From an uncultured Rickettsiales bacterium (GTDB lineage: Bacteria; Pseudomonadota; Alphaproteobacteria; Rickettsiales; UBA1997), in the NCBI GenBank assembly GCA_944392135.1, contig CALXVQ010000001.1, positions 5,359 through 69,358 of the forward strand: DNA of 64,000 bases, given 5' to 3'. Each line of letters opens with the position of its first letter. Within the stretch, counting starts at the first letter, position 1. A model generated the notes under the pieces. The model saw only the letters and a program-made list of their open reading frames with translations, was not told the DNA's origin and searched no databases. This document shows positions 4,137-63,390 of this stretch, one piece after another. The translations under genes and the position numbers were made by a program.

Positions 4137-6464
4137 ATGAGAAATATTTCCAAGAAGTATAGTAAGAATATTGCATATTCCAATAACTTTGCATACATTG
4201 TTAATCTTACAAATAATAAAATTAAAAATAAAAAATTATCAAACAACATATATGGCTACAATCTTATTACTTTAAGTATGGTTGTACTTATTATGGGTGT
4301 TATAATGACAGCTCTTATAGGTTATTATGATGCTTTAAACATCAACAGAAGAACAACCATGACAGAGGATAAATTTAAAATAATCAACACATCATTAGTA
4401 GCATATCTTGCAAAGAATGGTAAGTTTCCTTGTCCGGCTCCATTAGATTGTGATTTACAAGGTTGTAATAATGACAGTGTTTTCACAGAGAAAGTTTTAG
4501 GAATAGAATTTAGACAAGACAGAGACATTGACAATGACTGTATTGCAGATAATTCTGGTGTTTTTGAATCAAAAAACGAAAAAGGAGAAAAAATTCTTTA
4601 TGGAAATGTTCCAGCTTTATCGTTAGGTTTAGATAATAATTATTTAATAGATAGTTGGCAAAATAAAATTGTTTATATTATTCCAGACATACTTACAAAA
4701 GACAATTCATTAAAAAATATATTATTAAACAAAGATGCAAGAGATCCAACTATTTCAGATGAATATGTAAAAGATGGTGAAATATTTTTATTATTATCAA
4801 ATAATGTTAACACTTCCGGTGCTTTCCCATACGAAAACAGAGAAAGCAACGATTTTTCTAGCCTTATTAGTTCATCGCATAACGAAGATAAATATAATCT
4901 TCCACAAAAAGATTTTACCATTGATTTAGAAAATGCAAAACAACTAAAATTTCATACCAATATAGATAATTTACATGATGCAATTAGAAAAAATTTTATA
5001 GATGAAAGTGATATTGGAGCCCCAGATTGTGCTGAGACAACAGAAACAGTATTACTTATCGATGATACTGGCAATAGTTCCGAGCCTGATTCTATACCAT
5101 ATGTTGATAAATATAATGATGTTCATAAAACTCAATGGAAAGACGATTCTACAGCGGTTAAAAATTATAAAGCAATACCATTTAAAATTCCAGATGATGT
5201 AACAGAAGTTTTTATTGAATTATGGGGGGCACAAGGTGGTGGGCAAGATTGTGCTGGAGAAGGTGATATGGGTATGTTAGGTGGCAAAGGTGGTTATACC
5301 TATGGATTTTTAGACACTACAGATGAAAATTTAGAAAAAATTGGTGTTAAAGATAGAACTATATATTTTTTTATTGGCGGATATGGAAAAAATGTTGCTA
5401 GCAATAAAGGTGGTGGTGGTGGTTGGAATGGTGGCGGTGGAGCTGCTACAGGTACCATATCATCGAAAAAAGAAGGTGCTGGTGGTGGAGCAACTGATGT
5501 TAGAACATCTGCGAATTTATCTAATCTCGCAGATTGGAAAAGTACTTTGAGTAGTAGATTAATGGTAGCTGGTGGTGGTGGTGGAAGTTCTGTTGGTGGT
5601 TTAACATATGATCAAGAAAAAGGTGGTGCAGGTGGTGGTGGAAATAATAATGGTTCAAATAGTGGCTCACATGGTGGTGCAACACCTGGACGTGGTGGAT
5701 GTGCCATAGGTGATAGTGATGGTAGTTGTTGCAAAATAAATCCAGCTAATATTGGCAATAATGGTGGTGGAGGAGGCTATTATGCCGGTGGAGGAGGTGG
5801 TTTATCAAATGGATGTTCAGCAACATCTGGTGGTAATTATGCCGGTGGAGGTGGTGGTTCTGGTTATATAAATAATAGTATAATATCGGACAGGAAAACA
5901 CCATGTAGTGTTAAAGAGGCTTGTACAGATACTAAAAAAGGTGGAAAAGATAATAGTTATGGTCGTAATGATAAATGCAGTAAAAGAGGTGATGGAATAG
6001 CAGGAACTGCAAAGAATGGCCAAGCATCAATTATTTTTATAGGTGTTAAAAATGATAAAAAGGAAGAGCCATTTACATATTATTATACATTTACATTTAA
6101 ACAAGCAAAGGCTGGTGAAGTTAGATTTGCCGATGAAGTTTGTCCATCTAATGTGTCAGATCCTGTACAAAAAAGTGATTTTTATACAGTATCTACACAT
6201 AATTCAGCTTCTAAGCCAGCAAAAAAATGTGGTGATAATCAACAATGGGAACAAAATTTTGAATATACTTGTAAAGTATTGCCAAAATGTGAAAACCCTG
6301 TTAAAAAATTTTCAGGTGTTGATTGGGGTGATATAAATTATGATATTGTAAATACTGGAATCATTACAGGCACAGATAATACTACTAATACTATTGTAAA
6401 ATATAAATGTATAGTAGAATTAGATGAAACTGGAAATTATACAGCATCTTATATAAGATTATAA
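4137..6464 (+). CDS. type IV pilin/pseudopilin-like N-terminus fused to a large glycine-rich domain and a Cys-containing C-terminal domain
   Basis: Pilin-like hydrophobic helix GYNLITLSMVVLIMGVIMTALIG, with T instead of the usual E5. Pilin-core-like LVAYLAKNGKFPCPAP and DSWQNKIVYI. Then a glycine-rich domain signature: FKIPDDVTEVFIELWGAQGGG...GGKGGYTYGFL...IYFFIGGYGKN...GGGGGWNGGGG...GAGGGATDVR...RLMVAGGGGGS. Confidence 0.6.
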   Translation: MRNISKKYSKNIAYSNNFAYIVNLTNNKIKNKKLSNNIYGYNLITLSMVVLIMGVIMTALIGYYDALNINRRTTMTEDKFKIINTSLVAYLAKNGKFPCPAPLDCDLQGCNNDSVFTEKVLGIEFRQDRDIDNDCIADNSGVFESKNEKGEKILYGNVPALSLGLDNNYLIDSWQNKIVYIIPDILTKDNSLKNILLNKDARDPTISDEYVKDGEIFLLLSNNVNTSGAFPYENRESNDFSSLISSSHNEDKYNLPQKDFTIDLENAKQLKFHTNIDNLHDAIRKNFIDESDIGAPDCAETTETVLLIDDTGNSSEPDSIPYVDKYNDVHKTQWKDDSTAVKNYKAIPFKIPDDVTEVFIELWGAQGGGQDCAGEGDMGMLGGKGGYTYGFLDTTDENLEKIGVKDRTIYFFIGGYGKNVASNKGGGGGWNGGGGAATGTISSKKEGAGGGATDVRTSANLSNLADWKSTLSSRLMVAGGGGGSSVGGLTYDQEKGGAGGGGNNNGSNSGSHGGATPGRGGCAIGDSDGSCCKINPANIGNNGGGGGYYAGGGGGLSNGCSATSGGNYAGGGGGSGYINNSIISDRKTPCSVKEACTDTKKGGKDNSYGRNDKCSKRGDGIAGTAKNGQASIIFIGVKNDKKEEPFTYYYTFTFKQAKAGEVRFADEVCPSNVSDPVQKSDFYTVSTHNSASKPAKKCGDNQQWEQNFEYTCKVLPKCENPVKKFSGVDWGDINYDIVNTGIITGTDNTTNTIVKYKCIVELDETGNYTASYIRL

Positions 6465-6493
6465 CCATAAAAAATCATCAGTTTAATATTATT

Positions 6494-7765
6494 GTGGTGT
6501 GAGGTCTCTAACCCCACACCTGATGTTTACAGATGATAGAGTTTTATAAAATCAATTTGCGAAGTTAATTTTTTTCTGTGGTGTGAAGTCTCCCGACCCC
6601 ATACCAAAAGAGACTACCATAGTATCCCATCCCAAGATTGCCACGGCTTTTTCAAAGCCTCGCAATGACGCTTCTTTTTTTCGTCATTGCGAGCGAAGCG
6701 AAGCAATCCATAAACCACCAATAGCTAATATAAAAATAGAAAAGAAAAGAATTCCATGAATGAATAATTATGTCTCATACCGAGATTGCCACGGCTTTTG
6801 CAAAGCCTCGCAATGACAGGCCAAGAATAAACGAGATTGCCACGAGTTGCAAGCAACTCTCGCAATGACGATGTGGGAGTACTGTCATTGCGAGGAGTGA
6901 AACGACGAAGCAATCCACAAACCACTGATATTTCATTTATTCACAGAAAAAATAAAAAATTTCACCAATAGAATAATTAATTATATAATTATAATAATTA
7001 ATACAAAAACAAAAAGAAAAAGAAGCTATTATTATTTATCAAGTCCAAGAATTAATTTCAAATGAAATATTAATTTTCAATTTTCAATTTCTTATAGATT
7101 ATCATAAAATTTTGTTTGACTATTATAATGTTCTATCCCGAGATTGCCACAGCTTTTTCAAAGCCTCGCAATGACAGGCTAAGAATAAACGAGATTGCCA
7201 CAGGCCTTCGGCCTTCGCAATGACGAGTTTGTGTATACTGTCATTACGAGCGAAGCGAAGCAATCCACAAACCACAAACTACCACCCCTTTGTCATTGCG
7301 AGCAAAGCGAAGCAATCCATAAACCACCAATAGCTAATATAAAAATAGAAAATAAAAAGAATTCCATGAATAAATAATTATGTCTCATCCCGAGATTGCC
7401 ACGGCTTTTTCAAAGCCTCGCAATGACGAGTTTGTGTATACTGTCATTGCGAGCAAAGCGAAGCAATCCACAAACCATCAATAACCTATTCATTCACAGA
7501 AAACCAAAAAAATTCACTACCACTCATCCCCTTCGTCATTGCGAGGAGTGAAACGACGAAGCAATCCATAAACCACTGATAGCTAATACAAAAATAGAAA
7601 AGAAAAGAATTCACTACTCTCGTCCCCTTTCGTCATTGCGAGAACCGAAGGTTCGTGGCAATCCATCAACCACCATTATTTTATTCATTCATAGAAAAAT
7701 AAAAGAATTCATCACCCTTTGCCCCCTTCGTCATTGCGAAGGCCAAAGGCCTGTGGCAATCCACA
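6494..7765. repeat. intergenic array 1 of hairpin modules (GTCATTGCGAG-[variable stem-loop]-GTGGCAATC and relatives)
   Basis: About 14 modules in both orientations, for example 6835-6869, 7193-7224 and 7631-7664. They are interleaved with AT-rich linkers (AAAATAGAAAAGAAAAGAATTC..) and GGTGTG..CACACC hairpins at 6494-6520 and 6578-6603. Confidence 0.9.
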
Positions 7766-8212
7766 ACCACTGTCATTTATAAATAAAATATAATAAACTA
7801 ATTTATTTATTAGTTTACCAGATTATAAAATAAGTCATCCCAGTTCTTATTATTTTCTTCTATTAATTCTATTTTTTTACTTCTAGAACCAGCTTTTAAT
7901 TGTTTTTCTCTTGAAATTGCATTATACATATCATCATAAACTTCATAATAAACCAATTTATCTACATTATATTTCATTGTAAATCCTTCTATTTTCTTGG
8001 ATTTGTGTTCCGATACTCGTCTTAATAAATCATTTGTGACACCAATATATAATGTACCATGTTTTTTATTTGCTAATATATATACATATGAAGTTTTATT
8101 CATTAATGAAGTATCTTTTTTTAAGAAAAATATAACAATTATTATTAAAATAAAGAGTTTTTTATTTTAATAAATTAATGGATTGCCACGAACCTTCGGT
8201 TCTCGCAATGAC
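7730..8212 (-). mobile_element. 483-bp unit: GIY-YIG gene bounded by inverted hairpin modules (copy 1)
   Basis: Ends are GTCATTGCGAAGGCCAAAGGCCTGTGGCAATCC (7730-7762) and GGATTGCCACGAACCTTCGGTTCTCGCAATGAC (8180-8212), in inverted orientation. The whole unit is near-identical to 59620-60102 on the other strand. Mobility is a hypothesis. Confidence 0.45.
7810..8103 (-). CDS. small GIY-YIG nuclease family protein (YhbQ/COG2827-like), copy 1
   Basis: 97 aa. The sequence SYVYILANKKHGTLYIGVTNDLLRRVSEHKS...KLVYYEVY...AISREKQLK carries the GIY...YIG motifs plus conserved R and E. Identical protein to 59729..60022. Confidence 0.85.
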   Translation of the reverse strand: MNKTSYVYILANKKHGTLYIGVTNDLLRRVSEHKSKKIEGFTMKYNVDKLVYYEVYDDMYNAISREKQLKAGSRSKKIELIEENNKNWDDLFYNLVN

Positions 8213-8875
8213 GGTGTGTGGATGTCGGTTCTCGCAGTGACGAGTTGGTGGGTAATTATCATAATGATGAGTTGGCATGTAGATCGTCACCATTCCGAGA
8301 TTGCCACAGCTTTTGCAAAGCCTCGCAATGACAGGCCAAGAATAAACAAGATTGCCACAGGCCTTCGGTCTTCACAATGACGAGTTTTGGTTGGGTATGG
8401 TAGTCGCCATATCAAGCTTGCCACGAGTTGCAAGCAACTCTCGCAATGACGAGTTGGTGTATACTGTCATTGCGAGCGAAGCGAAGCAATCCATAAATTT
8501 ATTGTAGTGTAGTTGTGAAGTTGGTTTTTGTTAGTCTTGGGTGTTGGATAGGGATATCTAACGCCACAAAGGGGTGCAAAAAAATGGTAAACTCAACCCC
8601 CCACTGACTTCGTCAGCACCCCCCTTACAAAGGGAGGCAAGCCCCACAAACCAATACTCACCACCCTTCGTCATTGCGAAGGCCAAAGGCCTGTGGCAAT
8701 CCATAAACCACAAAACCACCACAAAAAAACAGAAAAAAAAGAAATCACTATTATTTATCAAGTTAAAGAACTAATTTTTAATGAAATATTAATTTTCAAT
8801 TTTCAATTTTCAATTTCTCTCTCAATCCCCTTGTTGCTTTGCAACTTCCCCTCTTACAAATGGAGTCACTTGTCT
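8180..8875. repeat. intergenic array 2 of hairpin modules plus C-rich box and TTTTCAA heptamer tract
   Basis: Modules at about 8180, 8296, 8350, 8416, 8466 and 8668. C-rich box at 8594-8645, with a degenerate copy at about 8821-8870. (TTTTCAA)x3 at about 8795-8818. Confidence 0.9.
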
Positions 8876-9061
8876 TTGGCATTTGATGAGACATCAAACA
8901 CCACAAAAAAGCAAAAATTTATAAAAAAGTAGAAAATTCAAATTTTTTTATTAAAAATTTAAACATAGTATTTTCATACTCTCAAAGACATAAAAAATCA
9001 AAAAGTTAAAATAATTTTTAATTTTTTATTAAGCTATATATAAAAAGTAATATAAAAATAC

Positions 9062-9089
9062 TTGACAAGTGGAATAAATGTACTATATT
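9062..9089 (+). promoter_or_regulatory. candidate sigma70-type promoter for the RM-like operon
   Basis: TTGACA (9062-9067), 16-nt spacer, TATATT (9084-9089), about 150 nt upstream of 9241. Confidence 0.4.
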
Positions 9090-9240
9090 ATATTTATATA
9101 AATAAAAACAATAAAAGTGATTGTTTATAATATGGCAAAATATTTTTTACTCGCAGTATACAAGATATACTAAAAGTTAAAAAATATTAGTCAAGATATG
9201 GGGGCATCTTTAATAATTTTATTAATGAAGTATAAATTAT

Positions 9241-10908
9241 ATGAGTAATGATTTTTATAAATTAAGAATTTTTCTTTTTAAAGATGATGTTGAGAATTTA
9301 AATGAATGTTTTAATATAGATAAAATAAAAGATAAACAAAATTATAAAGAATTAAAATTTGAAAATGATATTGAAGCAAAAGGATATATTTGGAATAATA
9401 TATCTGCTGATGATAATAAACCAAAATGGTTTAATATTATAGATTTTTTTGATGATGATAATTCAAATCAAATTAATACTTTAAAAAATACAATACATTC
9501 AATTTTTGTATTAAAAGTTCAAAATAGAATATTTGGATTTAATTTTGGACAAGGATATTGGGCTTTTAATGATGAAAAAATAGAAACTGATTTTGGTTTA
9601 AGGATTCTTTTAAATATTGTTGATAAATTTAATCATCTATCATCTCTATCTATAGATGAAAATATAATAAATAAAAAAATAGATGCAAATAAATCAAATG
9701 AACTTAATGTTTTTACACCAAATAAAGATATGGATATAGTAAAGTCATTTATTGGAACAGTTAAGGAAGAATATAAAAATATTTTTTCAGAAAAAATTAG
9801 TGCAACTATAAATTCAATATTAATTAATTATAATATTGAAAATGCCAAAGATGATTTAATAAAATTATGTTTAAATTTAATAAAAATTAATTCTATAAAA
9901 GATTATGAAAAAAATATAAAATATCAATGGATTATTAATAAAAGATTAGAAAAAGATCAAGTTATATTAAATAATATAAATCAAATAATTATTGACGATT
10001 TAAAGAATAAAAATGATAACTTACAATTAAATTTATTTGATTTATCTTTTGAAAATTCATCAACATCTTATTTTAAGTATGCATTAAACGATCATACTAA
10101 ACATAAAAATTTAAAAGAATTTAATGATTTATCTATAAATGATTATTATGCTGAAATTTCAAAAAGAGGTGTTACTATTAATAATTTAGAAGATTTAAAA
10201 CATCATTTCATTTTGGATCAAAACAATGAAATACTTGCTAGTATTTATAATTCTTTGATTGCAGAAGTCAATTTTAAAAATTCAATTTATATATTATATC
10301 AAGGCAAGATTTTTAAAATATCTACTGATTATAAAAATGAAATAGATAATTTTTTTCAAACTTTGATTAATGACTCTCAAGATATAAAACTACCAGATTA
10401 TAATTCACAAAATGAACATGAATATAATGAAATTATAAGTAATAATTATGGTTATGTATGTTTAGATGCAAAGAATGTTACAATAAGAGATAGTGATAAA
10501 TTTGAAATTTGTGATGTTTTATCAAATAAAAAAGAATTTTTTTGTATTAAACATAAAAATTATTCATCAACATTAAGTCATCTTTTTAACCAAGCTCTAA
10601 ATTCTATAAAAATATTAAGAAATGATAAAAAGATAAGAGAAAAAGCAAATGATCAAATAAAAAAAGAACTGAATAAAAAATCAAAATATTTTAATATAAA
10701 TGAAGATTTTTCTGATTATCAAATTACTGATGATTCTTTAAAAGATTCTACTATTGTATTTGCTGTAATAGATAAAGAAACCAATAAAAGAAAATTACCA
10801 TTTTTTAGTGTAATTTCCTTAAAACAAGCAGTTGATTTATTATATGAAAAGGGATATAAAGTAAAATTTTGTTGGATTAATAATAATAGTTTAAAAAATG
10901 AAAAATAA
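9241..10908 (+). CDS. TIGR04141/DUF6119-like protein with a putative PD-(D/E)xK-type nuclease motif
   Basis: Family-like landmarks recalled from memory: N-terminal YKLRIFLFKDD, KPKWFNIIDFF, FGFNFGQGYWAFNDEKIETDFGLRILLN, and C-terminal LDAKNV...FEICDVLSNKKEFFCIKHK..STLSHLFNQALNS...LPFFSVISL. Overlaps hsdS by 11 nt. Confidence 0.5.
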   Translation: MSNDFYKLRIFLFKDDVENLNECFNIDKIKDKQNYKELKFENDIEAKGYIWNNISADDNKPKWFNIIDFFDDDNSNQINTLKNTIHSIFVLKVQNRIFGFNFGQGYWAFNDEKIETDFGLRILLNIVDKFNHLSSLSIDENIINKKIDANKSNELNVFTPNKDMDIVKSFIGTVKEEYKNIFSEKISATINSILINYNIENAKDDLIKLCLNLIKINSIKDYEKNIKYQWIINKRLEKDQVILNNINQIIIDDLKNKNDNLQLNLFDLSFENSSTSYFKYALNDHTKHKNLKEFNDLSINDYYAEISKRGVTINNLEDLKHHFILDQNNEILASIYNSLIAEVNFKNSIYILYQGKIFKISTDYKNEIDNFFQTLINDSQDIKLPDYNSQNEHEYNEIISNNYGYVCLDAKNVTIRDSDKFEICDVLSNKKEFFCIKHKNYSSTLSHLFNQALNSIKILRNDKKIREKANDQIKKELNKKSKYFNINEDFSDYQITDDSLKDSTIVFAVIDKETNKRKLPFFSVISLKQAVDLLYEKGYKVKFCWINNNSLKNEK

Positions 10909-20836: not shown

Positions 20837-20944
20837 TATAAATTATATTAGTATTTTAATATCTATATTTTTATTTATTATATATTTTTTAGTAATTATT
20901 ATTATAAATTGTTATGCGTTGTAAATAAGTCCTTCAATGATGAG

Positions 20945-21930
20945 TCAAGAATAAACGAGATTGCCATGGCTTTTTCAAAGCCTCGCAATGACGAGTTTGT
21001 GAATATCACCCTTTGCCCCTTCGTCATTGCGAGACTTCGTAGAAGTCGTGGCAATCCATAAACCACTAATAGTCAATACAAAAATAGAAAAGAAAAAGAA
21101 TTCACTATTATTTAATAAACCAAAGAATTAATTTTCAATTTTCAATTTTCAATTTTTAATTTCTTTCTCAACCCCCCTGTTGCTTCGCAACATCCCCCCT
21201 TACAAAGGGAGGCAAGCCCCCATAAATCACCACTCACTGCTCTTCGTCATTGCGAGGAGTGAAACGACGAAGCAATCTACAAACAACCAATAATAAACAC
21301 AAAAACAAAAAAGAAAAAGAAATCACTATTATTTATTAAATTAAAGAATTAATTTTCAATTTTCAATTTTCAATTTCTTATGGATTGCCACGAGTTCTAC
21401 AAACTCTCGCAATGACGGTGTGGGTTGAGTGTGATTGTTGCCATACTGAGATTGCCACGGCTTTTTCAAAGCCTCGCAATGACGGTTCTTTTTTTCGTCA
21501 TTGCGAGCGAAGCGAAGCAATCCATAAATCACAAAAAGTTAATACAAAAACAGAAAAGAAAAAAAGCATTCGCTATTTTTAATCAAGTCAAAGAACTAAT
21601 TTTAAATAAAATATTAATTTTCAATTTTCAATTTTCAATTTTCAATTTCTCTCTCAACCCCCCTGTTGCTTCGCAACTTCCCCCCTTACAAAGGGAGGCA
21701 AGCCCCATAAGCCACCAATAACAAACACAAAAACAGAAAAGAAAAAGAATTCCATGAATGAATAATTATACCCCATACTGAGATTGCCACGAGTTGCAAG
21801 CAACTCTCGCAATGACGAGTTTGTGAATACCACCTCTTGCCCCCTTCGTCATTGCGAGGAGTAAAACGACGAAGCAATCTACAAACAACCAATAATAAAC
21901 ACAAAAACAAAAAAGAAAAAGAATTCACCA
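20945..21930. repeat. intergenic array 3 of hairpin modules, C-rich boxes and heptamer tracts
   Basis: Modules at about 20956, 21023-21057, 21245, 21383-21416, 21438, 21495, 21779 and 21846. C-rich boxes at 21169-21221 and 21655-21706. Confidence 0.9.
21618..21645. repeat. (TTTTCAA)x4 heptamer microsatellite
   Basis: Four perfect tandem TTTTCAA units directly abutting a C-rich box. The same tract occurs with 2-4 units at about 7073, 8795, 21133 and 21349, and inverted at 27892 and 28479. Confidence 0.9.
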
Positions 21931-21997
21931 TAAAAAATAATAATAGTAAATATAAAAATAAAAAATAAAAAGATAAATAATATATAATAAATAAAAT

Positions 21998-22026
21998 TTG
22001 ACAAAAGTAAATAATATTATATATTT
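21998..22026 (+). promoter_or_regulatory. candidate promoter, part of a ~118-bp block duplicated at 23773..23890
   Basis: TTGACA (21998-22003), then 17 nt, then ATATTT. The block is conserved almost base-for-base with the copy upstream of 23840. Confidence 0.4.
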
Positions 22027-22047
22027 ATAAAAAAATTCTATTATAAA

Positions 22048-22740
22048 ATGAAAAAATTATTTATTCTATTTTTATTAGTATCTTTTAATTGTTTTGCAAG
22101 TGATAATATAAATTTCAAAAATTATCTATTGAAAGGTAATTTTAAAAAAGAAATATTTAGGGAGAATTATTTTTGGAGTTGGGATTTTAGAATTTTTGAT
22201 AATAAAATTTTTTTAAATTTCGAAGGAGATATGGGTGATACAGAAGCCCCAGAAGAATTTCCAAATGGTGAATATGAATTACTTACAGAAAATAATTCAA
22301 AAATAAAAGTAAATGTTAAAAATGGAAAAATACAAGAATTTATATTATTAAGTAATGAAGAAAATTTTAAAAAATATGAAGAAAATATTTCAAATGATTA
22401 TTGTAAGATAGCTATATTTTATTCTAATTATGATATTGTATATAGTGATAAAGAACATAAATATTATTATGTTATACCAGAAAATGGTGTAGTTGATTTA
22501 ATGGGATATAAGGAAAAAATAATTTCTTGCATATTTGATTATCATTCTTGTATTGCTATAAATGGAGAGCATAGCTATATTGTTGTAGATGATATAGAAG
22601 GTAATTCAAAAAATTTTACCACGACAGAAAATAATGATAAAATATTAAAAGAAGTAGCTAGTGATTCAAATATTGCACCGGATATTATAATTAATAATTG
22701 TCAAATTACTTATTATAATAAAAAATACTTCCAATTCTAG
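22048..22740 (+). CDS. secreted hypothetical protein (variable cassette A)
   Basis: The signal peptide MKKLFILFLLVSFNCFA is identical to that of 23840..24346. The mature part is unrelated. Confidence 0.6.
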   Translation: MKKLFILFLLVSFNCFASDNINFKNYLLKGNFKKEIFRENYFWSWDFRIFDNKIFLNFEGDMGDTEAPEEFPNGEYELLTENNSKIKVNVKNGKIQEFILLSNEENFKKYEENISNDYCKIAIFYSNYDIVYSDKEHKYYYVIPENGVVDLMGYKEKIISCIFDYHSCIAINGEHSYIVVDDIEGNSKNFTTTENNDKILKEVASDSNIAPDIIINNCQITYYNKKYFQF

Positions 22741-22786
22741 AATATAAATAAAAAATATAAGCAATTAATATTTATATTGTACTTAA

Positions 22787-23467
22787 ATGGTAAAATTTTC
22801 AAAACCCTTAAATCATGAAGATATGAGAATTACTACGGATTTTCATGATCCAAAAAGGCCTAGCCATTCTGGAATAGATTTTGGTAATAATTCGGATGGC
22901 AAGCCAATTTATGCTGTTGCTAATGGTTATGTTATATATTCAAATATAAGTGGTGGGTATGGAAATACTATTGTAATTAAACATAATGATGGCACATCAA
23001 CACTATATGTCCATATGAAAAATATATCTAATTATAAAGTTGGTGATTATGTTAAACAAAGTAGTATAATTGGCTATGTAGGTAATACTGGAAATAGTAG
23101 GGGTTCTCATTTACATTTTGAAAGAATTGATAAAGAAGGAACCGAATCAATAGAAAAATATTCAGATAATGGCAAACTTGGTTTATTTCCTAAGCAAAAC
23201 AGAATAAACCCACATACAATAATTGACAACAAAACTGGCTACTTTATATGGAGAAGTGAAAAAGATAATAATGTATGTAAAGAATGTACTAGTAGAGATG
23301 GAAAAATATTTGAATATGGTAAAGATATAGAACCACCTTTACACCATAATTGTAGATGTTATATTGAAGATATAGATAAGTCATCATATGATTATAATTA
23401 TATATCTACATCAAAGCATTTTGACAAAGCATTAATTGAATTAAAACAAATACTAAATAATAATTAA
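22787..23467 (+). CDS. M23 family metallopeptidase domain fused to a phage MuF/SPP1-gp7-like C-terminal Cys/His motif; no signal peptide
   Basis: M23 motifs HSGIDFG, GYGNTIVIKH, GNTGNSRGSHLHFE. C-terminal VCKECTSRDGKIFEYGKDIEPPLHHNCRCY resembles the D..C..C...G....PP.H.NCRC motif of the Phage_Mu_F family. Confidence 0.72.
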   Translation: MVKFSKPLNHEDMRITTDFHDPKRPSHSGIDFGNNSDGKPIYAVANGYVIYSNISGGYGNTIVIKHNDGTSTLYVHMKNISNYKVGDYVKQSSIIGYVGNTGNSRGSHLHFERIDKEGTESIEKYSDNGKLGLFPKQNRINPHTIIDNKTGYFIWRSEKDNNVCKECTSRDGKIFEYGKDIEPPLHHNCRCYIEDIDKSSYDYNYISTSKHFDKALIELKQILNNN

Positions 23468-23523
23468 AATTTATAATAATATAAAATTATCATTCTACAA
23501 TAATTAAATAATAATTATGATAT

Positions 23524-23712
23524 ATGATATATTATATTTATATGAAAAATAATATTAAAATTACAAAATCTTTTAAAGAATATTTATATCAAAATAATTT
23601 AGGATTTTCAGTAATTGAATTAGCGATGGTATTAATTATTATAAGTTTAATTATAGGTGTGATTATGGATGGGGTAAAACTTGTTGAGAGTGCAAAAATC
23701 ATAAAAGGATAA
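23524..23712 (+). CDS. truncated type IV pilin-like protein (N-terminal helix only)
   Basis: Prepilin-type motif LGFSVIELAMVLIIISLIIGVI. The ORF ends about 35 aa after the cleavage motif. Confidence 0.45.
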   Translation: MIYYIYMKNNIKITKSFKEYLYQNNLGFSVIELAMVLIIISLIIGVIMDGVKLVESAKIIKG

Positions 23713-23789
23713 TATTATAAATATAAAAATAACTTAATACTATTAATAAAAATAATAATAAGATAAAAATTCTATATAATAAATAAAAT

Positions 23790-23818
23790 TTGACAAAAGT
23801 AAATAATATTATACATTT
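23790..23818 (+). promoter_or_regulatory. candidate promoter (second copy of the duplicated block)
   Basis: TTGACA (23790-23795) in the same conserved block as 21998. Confidence 0.4.
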
Positions 23819-23839
23819 ATAAAAAAATTCTATTATAAA

Positions 23840-24346
23840 ATGAAAAAATTGTTTATTCTATTTTTATTAGTATCTTTTAATTGTTTTGCTGATGATGTAA
23901 GGTCTGATTTTTTAGATATAAAAGAAAAAGATAATCTTAATTGTTATGATGTTAAATTCAATTTTGATAATAAAGAATATGAAGATGTGAGAAATAAGAT
24001 TATTAAAATTGAAAATTTAACAGAATATGAAGATAAAAATTATGTTGGTATTGCTTATTATGATCTAAATTCTGATGGTAAAGATGAAATACTTGCAAAA
24101 GTTTGCAATATTATTATGTATGGTTTTAGTGGATGTGTAATTACAGTATATGAAGATTATAATGATAATTATGAACCAATTGGTATAGATGGTAATTTTG
24201 ATTTATGTATTTCTAATAAAAAAACTAATGGTTATTATGATTTATATACAACTGTTAAAAATACTAGCATGGGAGAAAAGAAAAAATATCCAGATGATTT
24301 TTTGAATATTAGATTATTTAAGTATACAGATGGTAAATATATATAA
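23840..24346 (+). CDS. secreted hypothetical protein (variable cassette B)
   Basis: Identical 17-aa signal peptide to cassette A. The mature part contains DLNSDGKDEI (FG-GAP/Ca-binding-like loop). Confidence 0.6.
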   Translation: MKKLFILFLLVSFNCFADDVRSDFLDIKEKDNLNCYDVKFNFDNKEYEDVRNKIIKIENLTEYEDKNYVGIAYYDLNSDGKDEILAKVCNIIMYGFSGCVITVYEDYNDNYEPIGIDGNFDLCISNKKTNGYYDLYTTVKNTSMGEKKKYPDDFLNIRLFKYTDGKYI

Positions 24347-24440
24347 TTTCATACTTCCATAATAAAAATAATATAAGAATATAACAAATATTTAAATATT
24401 ATTTATATATGAAAAGTTATGAACAATTTCTTGATAAATA

Positions 24441-24605
24441 TTTGAATATGGCAAAGATATAGAACCACCTTTACACCATAATTGTAGATGCTATATTGAA
24501 GATATAAATAAGTCATCATATGATTATAATTATATATCTACATCAAAGCATTTTGACAAAGCATTAATTGAATTAAAACAAATATTAGATAATAATATTA
24601 AATAA
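24441..24605 (+). pseudogene. orphan 3' fragment of the M23-MuF gene
   Basis: Encodes FEYGKDIEPPLHHNCRCYIEDINKSSYDYNYISTSKHFDKALIELKQILDNNIK*, about 95% identical at nucleotide level to 23309..23467. An in-frame TAA lies immediately upstream and there is no start codon. Confidence 0.75.
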
Positions 24606-24636
24606 TAAAATTAAAGAAAAACTAAATAAAAAATAA

Positions 24637-24662
24637 AAAAGGCATCAATTTTAATGCCTTTT
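24637..24662. terminator. bidirectional hairpin terminator
   Basis: AAAAGGCAT / ATGCCTTTT stem flanked by an A-run and a T-run, between convergent genes. Confidence 0.6.
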
Positions 24663-24691: not shown

Positions 24692-25048
24692 TTATTTCAT
24701 GGTTAATAGAGCTTTTTTTGCACAAAATGCTTTGCAAATATCATCTAATAAAGCTTGCATACCATGTGTAAGTTCTTCTTTTTCGCTAAGTGATTTTACT
24801 GTATCAATAATATCAAGTACTGATTTGGATAAATCGCTATTGATATAAGCAGGATTTAATAAATTATTTGATAATTCGGCTTTTTTATTTAAACCCATAA
24901 AATACATTTCACCAATACAATCTACAAGTTCGTCAATATCTTCTTGCAATCTATCAAATAAAAGATGTTGAGAATAACTTGTAGTTGTCCAGTGATTTAA
25001 TTTACAAGAATATTTAAAGGCCACCAATTTTTGCATTAATTCAAACAT
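24692..25048 (-). CDS. short Dps/ferritin-like four-helix-bundle protein (tentative)
   Basis: KLNHWTTTSYSQHLLFDRLQEDIDELVDCIGE resembles the Dps pattern HW.v.G..F..lH..fee....e.iD.iaE. Only 118 aa. Confidence 0.4.
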   Translation of the reverse strand: MFELMQKLVAFKYSCKLNHWTTTSYSQHLLFDRLQEDIDELVDCIGEMYFMGLNKKAELSNNLLNPAYINSDLSKSVLDIIDTVKSLSEKEELTHGMQALLDDICKAFCAKKALLTMK

Positions 25049-25927: not shown

Positions 25928-26002
25928 GCGGGTATAGCTCAGTGGTAGAGCACAACCTTGCCAAGGTTGGGGTCGCGAGTTCAAGCCTCGTTGCCCGCTC
26001 CA
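25928..26002 (+). tRNA. tRNA-Gly (anticodon GCC)
   Basis: Hand-folded cloverleaf. Acceptor GCGGGTA/TGCCCGC, D arm GCTC-AGTGGTA-GAGC, anticodon arm CAACC-TTGCCAA-GGTTG, T arm GCGAG-TTCAAGC-CTCGT, encoded CCA. Confidence 0.92.
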
Positions 26003-41726: not shown

Positions 41727-41763
41727 TTGTTGACTTTAATAAAACATAGAATATTATGTCTTT

Positions 41764-41810
41764 TGGAGATGGAGTTCTCCTTTAACCGCAACTAGCTGAT
41801 AACTCCTACT
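41764..41810 (+). promoter_or_regulatory. fluoride riboswitch (crcB RNA motif) candidate
   Basis: UGGAGAUGGAGUUCUCCUUUAACCGCAACUAGCUGAUAACUCCUAC matches the remembered consensus GGnGAUGGnnUUCnCC...AACCGC...GCUGAU.A(nnn)CCUAC. The pseudoknot pair is GGAGU / ACUCC. Located 27 nt upstream of the ATG of a cation/H+ antiporter gene. Confidence 0.68.
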
Positions 41811-41836
41811 TTTAAAAACAATATAAGGAGTTTTGT

Positions 41837-43039
41837 ATGCTTTTTCAAATATTTAGTCTTGTATTTTTAGGTTTAATTATAGATTGGCTTTTTAGAAAAA
41901 TTAAATTACCATCACTTACTGGATGGTTGATTTTTGGTATTATAATTAGTCCTAATACTTATAATTTATTTGGTAGTGAAGTTCTTAGTGTTTCACAAGA
42001 ATTTAAAAATTTAGCATTAATTGTTATTTTATTAAGGGCAGGACTTGAAATAGATTTACAATCACTAAAAAAAATTGGCATTAGAGCTATATTAATGTCA
42101 TTTATCCCTTGTGTTATTGAAATGGTTTTTGTAGCTTTTTCAGCTAATAAATTGTTGGACTTGACATTACTTGAATCATTTATGTTGGGAAGTATTTTAT
42201 CTGCTGTATCACCTGCAATTATTGTTCCTTCTATGATTGATGCAATCAAAGCAAAAAGAGGTATCAAAAAAGGTATCCCTACATTAGTTTTAGCTGGTTC
42301 AAGTTGTGATGATGCTGTGGCTATGGTATTTTGTGCTTCGTTTGTTTCAATGTATATTGGTAGTAATGTAAGTTTAGTTCAAAATTTAGTTGATATTCCA
42401 ATTTCAATTATTGTTGGCATTATAGTTGGTATAGCAATAGCTATAATATTAAATAAAGTGTTTGATAAATTTAACCCACGAGCTACAAAAAGGATTTTAA
42501 TTTTATTATTTATAGCAACGGCACTTTTAAAAATTGAAGAGATTTTGACTATAATTCCATTTTCTGCAATAATTACAATTATGACAATAGGTGTAGTTAT
42601 TTTAAGTAAAAATGAAGTTTATGCCAATGAATTATCTTTAAGATATGGAAAATTATGGATATTTTTACAAATACTATTATTTACATTAGTTGGTATGCAA
42701 ATTGATATAAAAATAGTTTTATCAACTGGTTTGTTAGGGTTTTTAATTATTTTTATTGGACTTTTAGGAAGAAGCATTGGTGTAATTTTATGTTTATTAA
42801 AAAGCGACTTAAATTTCAAAGAAAGATTATTTGTAGTTATTGCATATATTCCAAAAGCAACAGTTCAAGCTGCCATCGGCAGTATGCCACTCAATGCAAT
42901 GCTTACAAACAACTTGCCATCTTTGCCAGGACAAATAATTTTATCAATTGCTGTTTTATCAATTTTAATCACCGCTCCCCTTGGTTCATTTTTAATACAT
43001 TATAGTAGAGATAGATTATTGACAAGGGATATTAAGTAA
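41837..43039 (+). CDS. cation/H+ exchanger (Na_H_Exchanger, CPA family) membrane protein
   Basis: 400 aa, about 11-12 TM helices. LPSLTGWLIFGIIISP...LALIVILLRAGLEIDL...FMLGSILSAVSPAIIV is typical of CPA1/CPA2 antiporters. Confidence 0.78.
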   Translation: MLFQIFSLVFLGLIIDWLFRKIKLPSLTGWLIFGIIISPNTYNLFGSEVLSVSQEFKNLALIVILLRAGLEIDLQSLKKIGIRAILMSFIPCVIEMVFVAFSANKLLDLTLLESFMLGSILSAVSPAIIVPSMIDAIKAKRGIKKGIPTLVLAGSSCDDAVAMVFCASFVSMYIGSNVSLVQNLVDIPISIIVGIIVGIAIAIILNKVFDKFNPRATKRILILLFIATALLKIEEILTIIPFSAIITIMTIGVVILSKNEVYANELSLRYGKLWIFLQILLFTLVGMQIDIKIVLSTGLLGFLIIFIGLLGRSIGVILCLLKSDLNFKERLFVVIAYIPKATVQAAIGSMPLNAMLTNNLPSLPGQIILSIAVLSILITAPLGSFLIHYSRDRLLTRDIK

Positions 43040-61261: not shown

Positions 61262-62692
61262 ATGAAAATTTTAAATAAGTTATATAATTTTTTTACAAAA
61301 GATAATTTGGTTCTTGGCTTTTCAAGAACTAGGAAAATCACAGATTTTGATAATGCAGATTTTCGAGATGATCAATTTAAAAAAAATATTCTGTTTGCAA
61401 CAATATTTTTATTTTTAATTGTTCTATTTATATTACTATATATTTTTTTCAAAAATACTTTAATTGAAAAAGAAAATAACACAATTAATACATTACCTCC
61501 GCTTAAAATTGTTATTCCATATCCTAATAATTCTATAAATATTGATGATTACGAAATATTAAAATATAATATCAAAGAAGGTGATAATCTTATAACTATA
61601 TTAACAAAAGAAGTTGGCATTTCTAATTCTGATGCATATAGTATTCTAACTGCACTAAAAAATGTTTATAATATTTCACAATTGCAAGTAGGACAACCAA
61701 TAGAAATTAAATACAGAGTTATGATAAATCAAAATGATTCTGGTGAAATTGAAGAAAAGATTTTATTAGAAGAATTAAAAATAGAATTAGATAATAAAGA
61801 AAGAGAAGTTGTTGTATATTTAAATTCTGATAATATTTATCAAGCTCGAGAAAATAAAATTGCTCTAAATAAACACTATTTAAAATATAAAGTAAAAGTA
61901 AAAGATAGTCTCTATAATGATGGTATTGCAGCTGGTATTCCTGCTAATATAATGGTAAATTTTATTAAATTTTTTAGCTTTGATATAGACTTTCAAAGAG
62001 ATTTAAGAGTAGGGGATGAATTTGAAATCTTATTTGAAATATATTCAACAGATGATGGCAAAAAGGTTAAGGATGGTGATATTTTATATGCTCATCTTGA
62101 TAATCAAGGAAGAGTATTTGATATATATAAGTATAATGTAAATGGAAATACTTACTATTTTAATAAAAATGGACAAAGTGCTCAAAAATCTTTATTAAAA
62201 ACACCTATAAATGGAGCTAGAATATCATCAAATTATGGTTATAGAAAACATCCAATCTTAGGTTATAATAAATTGCATAATGGTAAAGATTTTGCTGCAC
62301 CAACTGGAACTCCTATTTTTGCTGCTGGTAGTGGTACTGTTGTAAAAGCACAATTTTGGAGTACATGGGGAAATTATGTTAGAATTAAACATGTTGGTGG
62401 TTATGATACAGAGTATGCTCATGCTAGTAAGATTGCACCAGGTATAAAACCAGGTGTAAAAGTAAAACAAGGACAGGTTATAGCATATGTTGGTACAACT
62501 GGAAGATCGACAGGTCCACATCTACATTTTGGTGTATTATATAATAATAAAAGAATTAATCCAGATAGGGTAAAATCTTTACCAAGTATTAAATTGGTTG
62601 GAAAAGATTTAATTAATTATAAGAATGAAGTAAAAAGAATTGATTTATATAGATCTAATATACCAAATCAAAATTTAGTATTAAAAAAATGA
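61262..62692 (+). CDS. M23 family metallopeptidase with N-terminal TM and OapA/LysM-like region
   Basis: HNGKDFAAPTGTPIFAAGSGTV, YVRIKHVGGYDTEYAH, GTTGRSTGPHLHFGV. Confidence 0.85.
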   Translation: MKILNKLYNFFTKDNLVLGFSRTRKITDFDNADFRDDQFKKNILFATIFLFLIVLFILLYIFFKNTLIEKENNTINTLPPLKIVIPYPNNSINIDDYEILKYNIKEGDNLITILTKEVGISNSDAYSILTALKNVYNISQLQVGQPIEIKYRVMINQNDSGEIEEKILLEELKIELDNKEREVVVYLNSDNIYQARENKIALNKHYLKYKVKVKDSLYNDGIAAGIPANIMVNFIKFFSFDIDFQRDLRVGDEFEILFEIYSTDDGKKVKDGDILYAHLDNQGRVFDIYKYNVNGNTYYFNKNGQSAQKSLLKTPINGARISSNYGYRKHPILGYNKLHNGKDFAAPTGTPIFAAGSGTVVKAQFWSTWGNYVRIKHVGGYDTEYAHASKIAPGIKPGVKVKQGQVIAYVGTTGRSTGPHLHFGVLYNNKRINPDRVKSLPSIKLVGKDLINYKNEVKRIDLYRSNIPNQNLVLKK

Positions 62693-63390
62693 AAAATAAT
62701 AAAGGCTTAACATTAATAGAAATTTCTTTTATAGTAATTGTTATTTCTATAATGCTAAGTTTTTTTATAACTATTGTGGTTAATAGAGATAAAAATAATA
62801 TTAAATCATTAGCAAAAGATTTATACCAATATAATTTAGCTATAAAAAATTTTCAAATAAAATATGGTTTTTTGCCAGGTGATTTAAAAAAAACTGATAT
62901 TTTATTTTTATCTGTAAATAATACTGATGGTAATGAAAATAATTTAATAGACGATAAAAACCAACAAAATAATATATTTGATAAAAATATAAAAATGGAT
63001 GGTGAGTTAGTAAATTTTTGGCTACATTTATATAATGCAAAAATGCTAAATAATGATGCAAAAGTTTTGCCATATGTTAAATTTGCTAGATCTAGTATTA
63101 TTGTATTTAATAATATAGAAAAAAATTATTATCATTTAAGTGTAAAAGCTGTTATGCCATCTGGTGAAATTGAAACTTTTAATAATTTTACACCATATCA
63201 AGCATATTTATTAGATAGAAAAATAGATGATAGTTTAGCTAATAGTGGAAAAATAATTGCTAGTGGTGGTAATAGAATTAATATTAATTCAAAAAATGAA
63301 GTACATAAAAAATGTGCTGTTGATGATGAATATTTAACAGCACATAAAAAGAAATTATGTCAATTAATTTATGAAATAAATATTAATTAA
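62689..63390 (+). CDS. type IV pilin-like protein
   Basis: Prepilin motif NKGLTLIEISFIVIVISIMLSF (G-1, E+5). The ATG overlaps the M23 stop (ATGA). Confidence 0.6.
   Translation: MKNNKGLTLIEISFIVIVISIMLSFFITIVVNRDKNNIKSLAKDLYQYNLAIKNFQIKYGFLPGDLKKTDILFLSVNNTDGNENNLIDDKNQQNNIFDKNIKMDGELVNFWLHLYNAKMLNNDAKVLPYVKFARSSIIVFNNIEKNYYHLSVKAVMPSGEIETFNNFTPYQAYLLDRKIDDSLANSGKIIASGGNRININSKNEVHKKCAVDDEYLTAHKKKLCQLIYEININ

Follow-up and report, generated by a model that had tools for sequence, protein, structure and literature searches.

Among the wall-degrading effectors of the type VI secretion system (T6SS), the amidases and muramidases of the Tae/Tai and Tge/Tgi pairs lack a signal peptide and are matched by Sec-exported immunity proteins; orphan immunity genes are common. 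In phages, the gp5 tail lysozyme of T4 is countered by the periplasmic inhibitor Spackle, and gp16 of T7 is a capsid-internal hydrolase. MuF toxins consist of a full N-terminal MuF domain and a C-terminal toxin; the gene follows that of the portal in a prophage, a small immunity open reading frame (ORF) lies downstream, and action is mostly cytoplasmic (Jamet et al. 2017, PMC5576092; Zhang et al. 2012, PMC3482391). The X-Tfe/X-Tfi pairs of the type IV secretion system (T4SS) of Xanthomonas and Stenotrophomonas combine a variable N-terminal wall hydrolase with a constant C-terminal recognition domain, and have periplasmic immunity encoded alongside (PMC8740702, PMC6759196). Here we describe a locus of an uncultured Rickettsiales bacterium that looks like an undescribed effector-plus-immunity system, in which wall hydrolases end in a short piece of MuF. 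It lies at positions 21981 to 24605 of a very AT-rich stretch of 64,000 nt, hereafter the window (GenBank assembly GCA_944392135.1, contig CALXVQ010000001.1, positions 5,359 to 69,358 of the forward strand). The source genome comprises 1.19 Mb in 18 contigs at ~25% GC.

As judged from sequence, the locus is made up of two tandem units, each with a constant 5' block (R1), the mature part of an exported protein, a hydrolase without signal peptide, and a constant C-terminal module. Both hydrolases share a single C-terminal module of ~80 residues, whose core is the Cys/His end of MuF (“mini-MuF”). The hydrolase of unit 1 would be an M23 endopeptidase, and that of unit 2 a phage-tail-type lysozyme, internally deleted in the window strain. 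The features of the locus are as follows.

21981..22098, + strand: R1a, constant 5' block of unit 1, with a promoter-like site, the 5' untranslated region and 17 codons that form a signal peptide
22048..22740, + strand: cassA, a 230-aa Sec-signal protein with a mature part of 213 aa; candidate partner or immunity protein of the M23 enzyme, found upstream of M23-miniMuF in 6 lineages
22787..23467, + strand: M23-miniMuF, a predicted peptidoglycan endopeptidase of 226 aa without signal peptide, assigned by Pfam, TIGR01641 and Foldseek
22862-23128, + strand: M23 domain of M23-miniMuF (residues 26-114), HxxxD and HxH intact
23228-23362, + strand: mini-MuF Cys/His module (residues 148-192), followed by a helical tail
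23301..23486, + strand: R2a, the portion of the constant 3' block that has a copy in the window strain, 92% identical to 24433-24618
23524..23712, + strand: N-terminal fragment of a prepilin, 62 aa, with a G|FSVIEL motif (weak N_methyl match, E 0.003)
23773..23890, + strand: R1b, constant 5' block of unit 2, a copy of R1a
23840..24346, + strand: cassB, a 168-aa Sec-signal protein with a mature part of 151 aa; candidate partner or immunity protein of the lysozyme-like enzyme, which it precedes in relatives
24409..24605, + strand: pseudogene of the second hydrolase (lysozyme-like plus mini-MuF), with a 556-bp deletion relative to the sister contig L011
24636..24663, no strand: palindromic terminator-like hairpin that closes unit 2 and the convergent DUF5856 gene

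A first-pass annotation of this DNA had read the gene in unit 1 as a signal-less M23 peptidase fused to the C-terminal Cys/His motif of MuF proteins. This is borne out by Pfam and TIGR01641, the MuF part being confined to the last ~45 residues of that family. In the profile search that had been proposed as a check, the 226-aa protein matched Peptidase_M23 at E 1e-27 and fell just below the gathering cut-off for Phage_Mu_F (profile positions 62-110 of 112, E 3e-6, 28.4 bits; cut-off 29.6); its sister proteins score exactly 29.6 bits. The match to TIGR01641 (SPP1-gp7; 5e-9, 36.6 bits) is likewise under the cut-off of 39.65 bits. The marks of the M23 family, HxxxD, HxH and a LytM fold, are all found in the protein, the motifs being HSGID (residues 27-31) and HLH (108-110), both conserved among homologues. 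Over its whole length the AlphaFold2 model reaches a pLDDT of 64, with a confident M23 core (78-89), and Foldseek aligned it with LytM, lysostaphin, DipM and Csd structures (3slu, 7qrl and 4qpb at rmsd 1.2-1.5 Å). The model is matched through its M23 part alone, not through mini-MuF, and a profile of the mini-MuF module by itself found no solved structure. Seven residues of mini-MuF are invariant across 20 sequences (W155, C164, C167, G172, H186, C189, C191), and the core pattern, W-x8-C-x2-C-x4-G-x-I-[FY]...P-x-H-x2-C-x-C, is the one that closes ordinary MuF proteins of phages.

The two copies of R1 are identical at 116 of 118 nt, in line with the duplicated block first reported, and its promoter-like site and 17 codons were also confirmed. 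Inside R1 lies the top sigma-70-like site of the region (TTGACA-16-TATATT, 21998-22025, with a copy at 23790-23817), and the block supplies the 17 N-terminal codons MKKLFILFLLVSFNCFA to the ORFs of both cassA and cassB. Beyond the signal peptide the two proteins (mature parts of 213 and 151 aa) are indeed unrelated. In profile-profile comparison the families align over the signal peptide only, and homology of cassA and cassB was rejected. Cleavage of cassA is predicted after CFA, and the protein is without lipobox; it matched no Pfam, NCBIfam or PHROG family, and its AlphaFold2 model, built from a 10-sequence alignment, is poor (pLDDT 51). Values of dN/dS are 0.06-0.17 for M23-miniMuF, 0.2-0.4 for cassA and 0.3-0.5 for cassB; by this measure all intact genes of the locus are under purifying selection. 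No R1 copies beyond the two were found in the 1.19-Mb genome, where the next-best matches are AT-rich noise of 70-77% identity. A lack of further copies had been put forward as a sign of mere local duplication; taken literally it holds for this genome, but it does not decide the matter, since sister strains and a lineage ~28% divergent at the nucleotide level retain the paired blocks.

At the 3' end, the last 55 codons of the M23 gene recur as a start-less fragment (24441-24605), as had been noticed, with 96% protein identity to the end of that gene. The fragment had been taken for an orphan 3' module displaced in the manner of polymorphic toxins. Comparison of assemblies identifies it instead as the tail of a second hydrolase, intact in sister assemblies, and thus as a deletion pseudogene rather than a displaced cassette. 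A search with the 226-aa protein found P0004, encoded by an intact 250-aa gene at the position of the orphan in 4 sister metagenome contigs (L011-L014), the last 86 residues of which are 93% identical to the query. The window aligns to L011 in two blocks (24347-24432 with 9939-10024, 86/86 identical; 24433-24640 with 10581-10788, 206/208), and the 556 bp between them are lost, from which we conclude that the gene was broken by deletion. The start codon (24409) and the first 8 codons (24409-24432) are retained; at the 24432/24433 junction the frame is shifted, giving an 18-codon ORF (24409-24462), and the former reading frame persists as the start-less fragment. Misassembly was judged unlikely from assembly-level comparison, in which both flanks match the sister contig and the left junction is unique; because that junction lies in unique sequence, a repeat-collapse artefact is disfavoured.

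The N-terminal half of P0004 is a lysozyme-like domain (residues 4-121) with a conserved ESGG...GKYQFG motif and without signal peptide. PHROG 27932, annotated as “baseplate hub subunit and tail lysozyme”, is hit by it at 9e-13 and by the lysozyme-like protein P0122 at 8e-23; as with mini-MuF, no solved structure was found for P0004. A 249-aa version is present in L019, from an “uncultured Rickettsiales bacterium” that is a species-level relative (M23 gene 99% identical). In L011-L014 and L019 the intact lysozyme-miniMuF gene sits between cassB and the convergent DUF5856 gene. With its lysozyme-like enzyme gene broken, cassB is orphaned in the window strain.

Two further observations concern copies of mini-MuF. 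In L019 (7625-8374) the lysozyme-miniMuF gene is full-length and reads HHNCRYY for HHNCRCY, so that an invariant Cys is lost, which suggests that the second unit is decaying there as well. A third mini-MuF remnant of 55-73 nt (FEYGKDIKPPLHHNCRC*) lies directly after a 5S rRNA gene in another contig of the source genome (L009, G000:C15, 668-744). The limit of its 5' similarity falls within ~7 nt of the pseudogene deletion junction at 24432/24433, and a related strain carries a longer version (P0123).

The constant ends of the units evolve in concert. In the window, the 3' block R2 (23301-23486 and 24433-24618) is 92% identical across 186 nt; in sister strains the shared block begins at DNKTGYF (~nt 23225), extends over ~245 nt and is 96-98% identical between the M23 and lysozyme genes. 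Within a strain, both paralogues carry the same residue at a strain-specific T/A site in CKEC[T/A]SRDG, and the ASD or ADD/ADE variant that follows the signal peptide is found now in unit A, now in unit B, depending on the strain. Both patterns indicate that gene conversion homogenises the 5' and 3' ends of the units, while their functional cores differ.

In relatives, the arrangement of the units is retained. A cassA homologue directly precedes M23-miniMuF on the same strand in the window and in L011, L019, L015, L017/L018, L074 (E 1e-5) and L075 (E 2e-13 to 2e-17, in a genome of 38% GC). Likewise, a cassB homologue precedes lysozyme-miniMuF in the sister strains of the window lineage and in L076 (E 1e-6). 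By homology, then, the family of the exported partner matches the catalytic domain, cassA going with M23 and cassB with lysozyme. Gene order and family-specific pairing hold across lineages in which partner identity is as low as 25-40%. Exported genes are also found without any hydrolase: cassA and cassB are adjacent in three loci (L028, L029, L032), and cassA stands alone in two (L030, L031). No hydrolase lacking an adjacent signal-peptide protein was seen among ~10 loci. L029 and L015 are 95-97% identical on either side of a ~790-bp segment, which is confined to the hydrolase and the second promoter and is missing from L029. In L017/L018 the cassA and M23-miniMuF pair is placed between two ABC-exporter genes, and the hydrolase has a long coiled-coil tail ending LYLRKGITF; the same tail is carried by the lysozyme version in L020 and by the fragment P0125.

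When the mini-MuF core was compared with 1.84 billion representative proteins, 203 matches were obtained, mostly MuF proteins of 200-400 aa. The closest are hydrolase fusions, with M23 (P0002, P0003, P0124, P0129, P0137) or a lysozyme-like domain (P0122, P0128, P0132). Of these, P0129 (M23) and P0132 (lysozyme) share a lineage-specific C-terminal tail of their own, so that the pattern of two enzymes with one tail recurs. In another family of the order, a 1.0-Mb genome (G133) encodes three tandem pairs of a signal-peptide protein followed by an M23-MuF-end protein (L047, G133:C23:68000-80000, 5212-10077, minus strand). For Phage_Mu_F, two of these three M23-MuF proteins reach 39 bits and pass the cut-off. 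A frameshift interrupts the MuF end of the middle hydrolase, and similarity among the three partners is faint. The module proved patchy in an order-wide search, being present in 2 of 3 genus genomes and in no other genome of the family. Its chromosomal neighbours differ from lineage to lineage and are never phage genes. A scan of JGI metagenomes recovered only the contig that was already known, and a literature search pairing the two Pfam names found nothing.

We suggest, giving the idea an even chance, that the two tandem modules are effector-immunity pairs, since a signal-less wall enzyme, a domain-specific exported neighbour, orphan neighbours, loss or decay of the enzyme, and tandem diversified pairs co-occur. 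In such a scheme the hydrolase would be a wall-degrading effector, which a delivery machine would recognise by mini-MuF as its constant handle. Each of cassA and cassB would inhibit its matching catalytic domain in the periplasm and so shield producer and kin cells. The functional steps are inferred: that the hydrolases are toxic and exported, that cassA and cassB inhibit them, and that mini-MuF acts as a handle. The effector with periplasmic immunity proposed in the first-pass annotation gains from the conserved pairing of family and domain, the orphan exported genes and the strain-variable hydrolase; its placement among the MuF polymorphic toxins does not stand, as set out below.

As for the vehicle, the genome encodes VirD4 (C6:2824-4620; 425 bits) and two VirB4 genes (194 and 108 bits), and VirD4 was found in 8/8 other genomes checked. 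The T6SS sheath TssC/VipB (PF05943) had no match in this genome, which is 94.8% complete. Intact genes for an HK97/gene transfer agent (GTA)-type portal (G000:C7:11894-12907), a major capsid protein (C6:36494-37321) and a large terminase (C7:48116-48829) are dispersed among housekeeping genes. The portal is of the HK97 type (PF04860); all 4 genomes of the genus have conserved it, as have several further genera of the family. No SPP1-type portal was found in the genome. Co-occurrence with portal or VirD4 was tried as a means of telling the vehicles apart and was uninformative. At present a type IV system of VirD4 and VirB4 is the candidate with the least evidence against it.

Several points weigh against effector-immunity pairs. 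The comparison loci are mostly short metagenome contigs, and the pairing rule is drawn from ~10 of them. In L020 a cassA homologue occurs in a locus with the lysozyme version only, which would require the assumed loss of an M23 gene. G147 has the MuF end N-terminal to M23, with two signal-peptide paralogues downstream, so that a strictly C-terminal signal is not universal. No known delivery signal was found on the hydrolases, neither an XVIPCD nor a T6SS marker (a Pfam scan at E<=1 gave only M23 and Phage_Mu_F). VirD4 and the portal are present in nearly every genome of the order that was checked, with or without the module, and because they are near-universal their co-occurrence with it is silent on the vehicle. 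Searched against the PDB with Foldseek, the low-confidence model of cassA (pLDDT 51) found nothing below E 0.1. Finally, the module is decaying in this genus, with 1 of 3 mini-MuF genes intact in the window strain.

The neighbours of the module in the window are a porin gene, ABC transporter genes, the DUF5856 gene, a DJ-1-like gene and RmuC. The DUF5856 gene (24692-25048, - strand) is convergent with the module in all sister contigs; it matches PHROG 858, “starvation-inducible regulator”, has a Dps-like look and shows no evident link to the module. Insertion at the tRNA-Gly gene (25928-26002) was considered and rejected: no island boundary or integrase was seen, and sister strains share the flanks. 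Between the porin gene and cassA, at 20900-21930, is a ~1-kb field of palindromic RPE-like units (…CGTCATTGCGAG…GCAATC…), which recur at hundreds of sites on all large contigs. The truncated pilin described between the two cassettes is present, its 62-aa ORF corresponding to a prepilin N-terminus only. It is missing from the matching loci L015, L017 and L020 and is probably a truncated copy of one of the genome's many pilin-like genes of ~230-270 aa, outside the conserved module; there are at least 15 pilin-like loci in the genome. Elsewhere in the window, a second M23 gene (61262-62692) encodes a MepM-like, membrane-anchored protein of 476 aa and overlaps by 4 nt a 233-aa prepilin-type gene (region 61262-63390). 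An EnvC-like M23 gene and a pilin-like gene are found on contig C16. A fluoride riboswitch (Rfam RF01734, 55.7 bits) is located at 41756-41815, upstream of an ORF at 41837-43039.

Other explanations for the locus have to be considered. M23 peptidases, tail lysozymes and MuF are all typical of phages, and the hydrolases might belong to a self-directed phage or GTA accessory, being head-internal or lysis enzymes loaded through contact of mini-MuF with a portal, with the exported proteins as Spackle-like inhibitors. This appears rather unlikely, even though precedents are at hand. SPP1 gp7, a MuF protein, reaches the procapsid by binding to the portal (PMC6316719); the viral contig L051 encodes, directly after an SPP1-type portal gene, a canonical MuF of 231 aa with the same CxxC...HxxCRC end; and the pre-ejectosome of cyanophage A4 contains a capsid-internal M23 (PDB 9k2v). 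In Rickettsiales, GTA head genes without an assigned function are reported to persist under purifying selection (PMC9254644), and the genome studied here retains intact if dispersed portal, capsid and terminase genes. Its portal is nevertheless of the HK97 type, with none of the SPP1 type that partners MuF in L051, and is also found in a member of the genus and in other genera without any mini-MuF gene. The modules are never near portal, capsid or terminase genes, and no hydrolase plus mini-MuF architecture was seen in the viral contigs or phage records searched. Direct phage origin was also pursued and rejected: IMG/VR contigs matched only via the MuF end of ordinary MuF proteins, and the apparent two-domain hits among GenBank phages turned out to be a membrane-tailed M23 protein and a tape-measure protein, both lacking the motif. 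A variant in which mini-MuF is a portal-binding handle that loads the wall enzymes into tail-poor, GTA-type head-portal particles, and the particles deliver protein or breach walls while cassA and cassB act as periplasmic shields, we hold to be very improbable.

A housekeeping role in envelope remodelling, with hydrolases that open the cell's own wall for division or for assembly of a pilus or type IV machine and with cassA and cassB as periplasmic regulators, strikes us as quite improbable. A pilin-like fragment does follow the M23 gene, the second M23 gene of the window overlaps a pilin-like gene, such genes are many in the genome, and purifying selection on the M23 gene is strong. The pilin fragment, however, is missing from the module in other lineages, neither hydrolase has an export signal, and the genome encodes ordinary, membrane-anchored M23 factors of the MepM and EnvC types at other sites. 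Moreover, the module is patchy and strain-variable, with a deletion here and complete loss in L029, which would not be expected of core envelope functions. The locus might also be an inert relic, that is, decaying phage DNA beside unrelated exported genes with repeats that are a functionless local duplication. Of three mini-MuF genes in the window strain, two are broken, the 118-bp block has no further genomic copies, and the locus adjoins the 1-kb field of genome-wide palindromic repeats. Against this, order and family-specific pairing are conserved at 25-40% partner identity, dN/dS is far under 1 in all three intact genes, and the constant ends are maintained in two lineages ~28% apart in nucleotide sequence. 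We would be surprised if the locus were no more than a relic.

If the effector-immunity reading is true, a Cys/His stretch of 50 residues from a phage head protein would be a new constant handle for modular antibacterial effectors, and small-genome Rickettsiales-type bacteria would bear wall-targeting effector-immunity pairs of a kind usually tied to free-living competitors. The locus would also provide two candidate families of inhibitors, specific to an M23 endopeptidase and to a lysozyme-like enzyme, respectively. The particle variant, for its part, would tie the locus, concretely if improbably, to the puzzle of why GTA head genes persist in the order. For annotation, the “orphan module” is to be entered as a deletion pseudogene, and weak Phage_Mu_F matches outside prophages can flag the hydrolase-miniMuF architecture.

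Of the systems introduced at the outset, MuF toxins are alike in that MuF-family sequence is the constant part of a modular enzyme protein and a candidate protective gene is adjacent. By contrast, only the last ~45 MuF residues are present here, and these are usually C-terminal to the enzyme. The catalytic domains are N-terminal (M23 residues 26-114; lysozyme-like 4-121 of P0004), the order being reversed only in G147. The partner is upstream and exported rather than downstream, the target would be the cell wall, and the locus lies outside any prophage, with neither portal nor terminase genes beside it; the only portal gene of the genome is on another contig, between housekeeping genes. Thus none of the four marks given by Jamet et al. 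was found (full N-terminal MuF [PF04233, PF06152, MuF3 or MuF4], C-terminal toxin, prophage location next to portal or terminase, downstream immunity ORF), and we do not assign the locus to the MuF polymorphic toxins, as had been suggested.

The phage systems resemble the locus in that a virion-borne wall hydrolase is opposed by a small signal-peptide protein of the resident cell, as in T4 gp5 with Spackle, and in that M23 or lysozyme domains travel inside particles, as with T7 gp16 and the M23 of cyanophage A4. They are parts of complete phages, whereas the present genes are chromosomal and away from structural genes; and here two versions of the enzyme have family-specific partners. T6SS pairs resemble the locus in their signal-less wall effector, Sec-exported partner and orphan partners. 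In this genome, by contrast, there is no sheath gene, and no PAAR, VgrG or MIX-type marker was found; because there is no T6SS, the locus is not a T6SS pair.

With X-Tfe/X-Tfi the locus has in common a signal-less wall hydrolase with a constant C-terminal domain, a gene beside it, often upstream, for a periplasmic (here candidate) immunity protein, and VirD4 in the genome. The constant domain differs, being an XVIPCD of ~120 residues there and a Cys/His MuF end of ~50 residues here; the partners here are without lipobox, and the T4SS is of the type present order-wide, which is not known to kill bacteria. Because XVIPCD was not found, the locus is not a member of the X-Tfe family, but by analogy its architecture works most like that of X-Tfe/X-Tfi.

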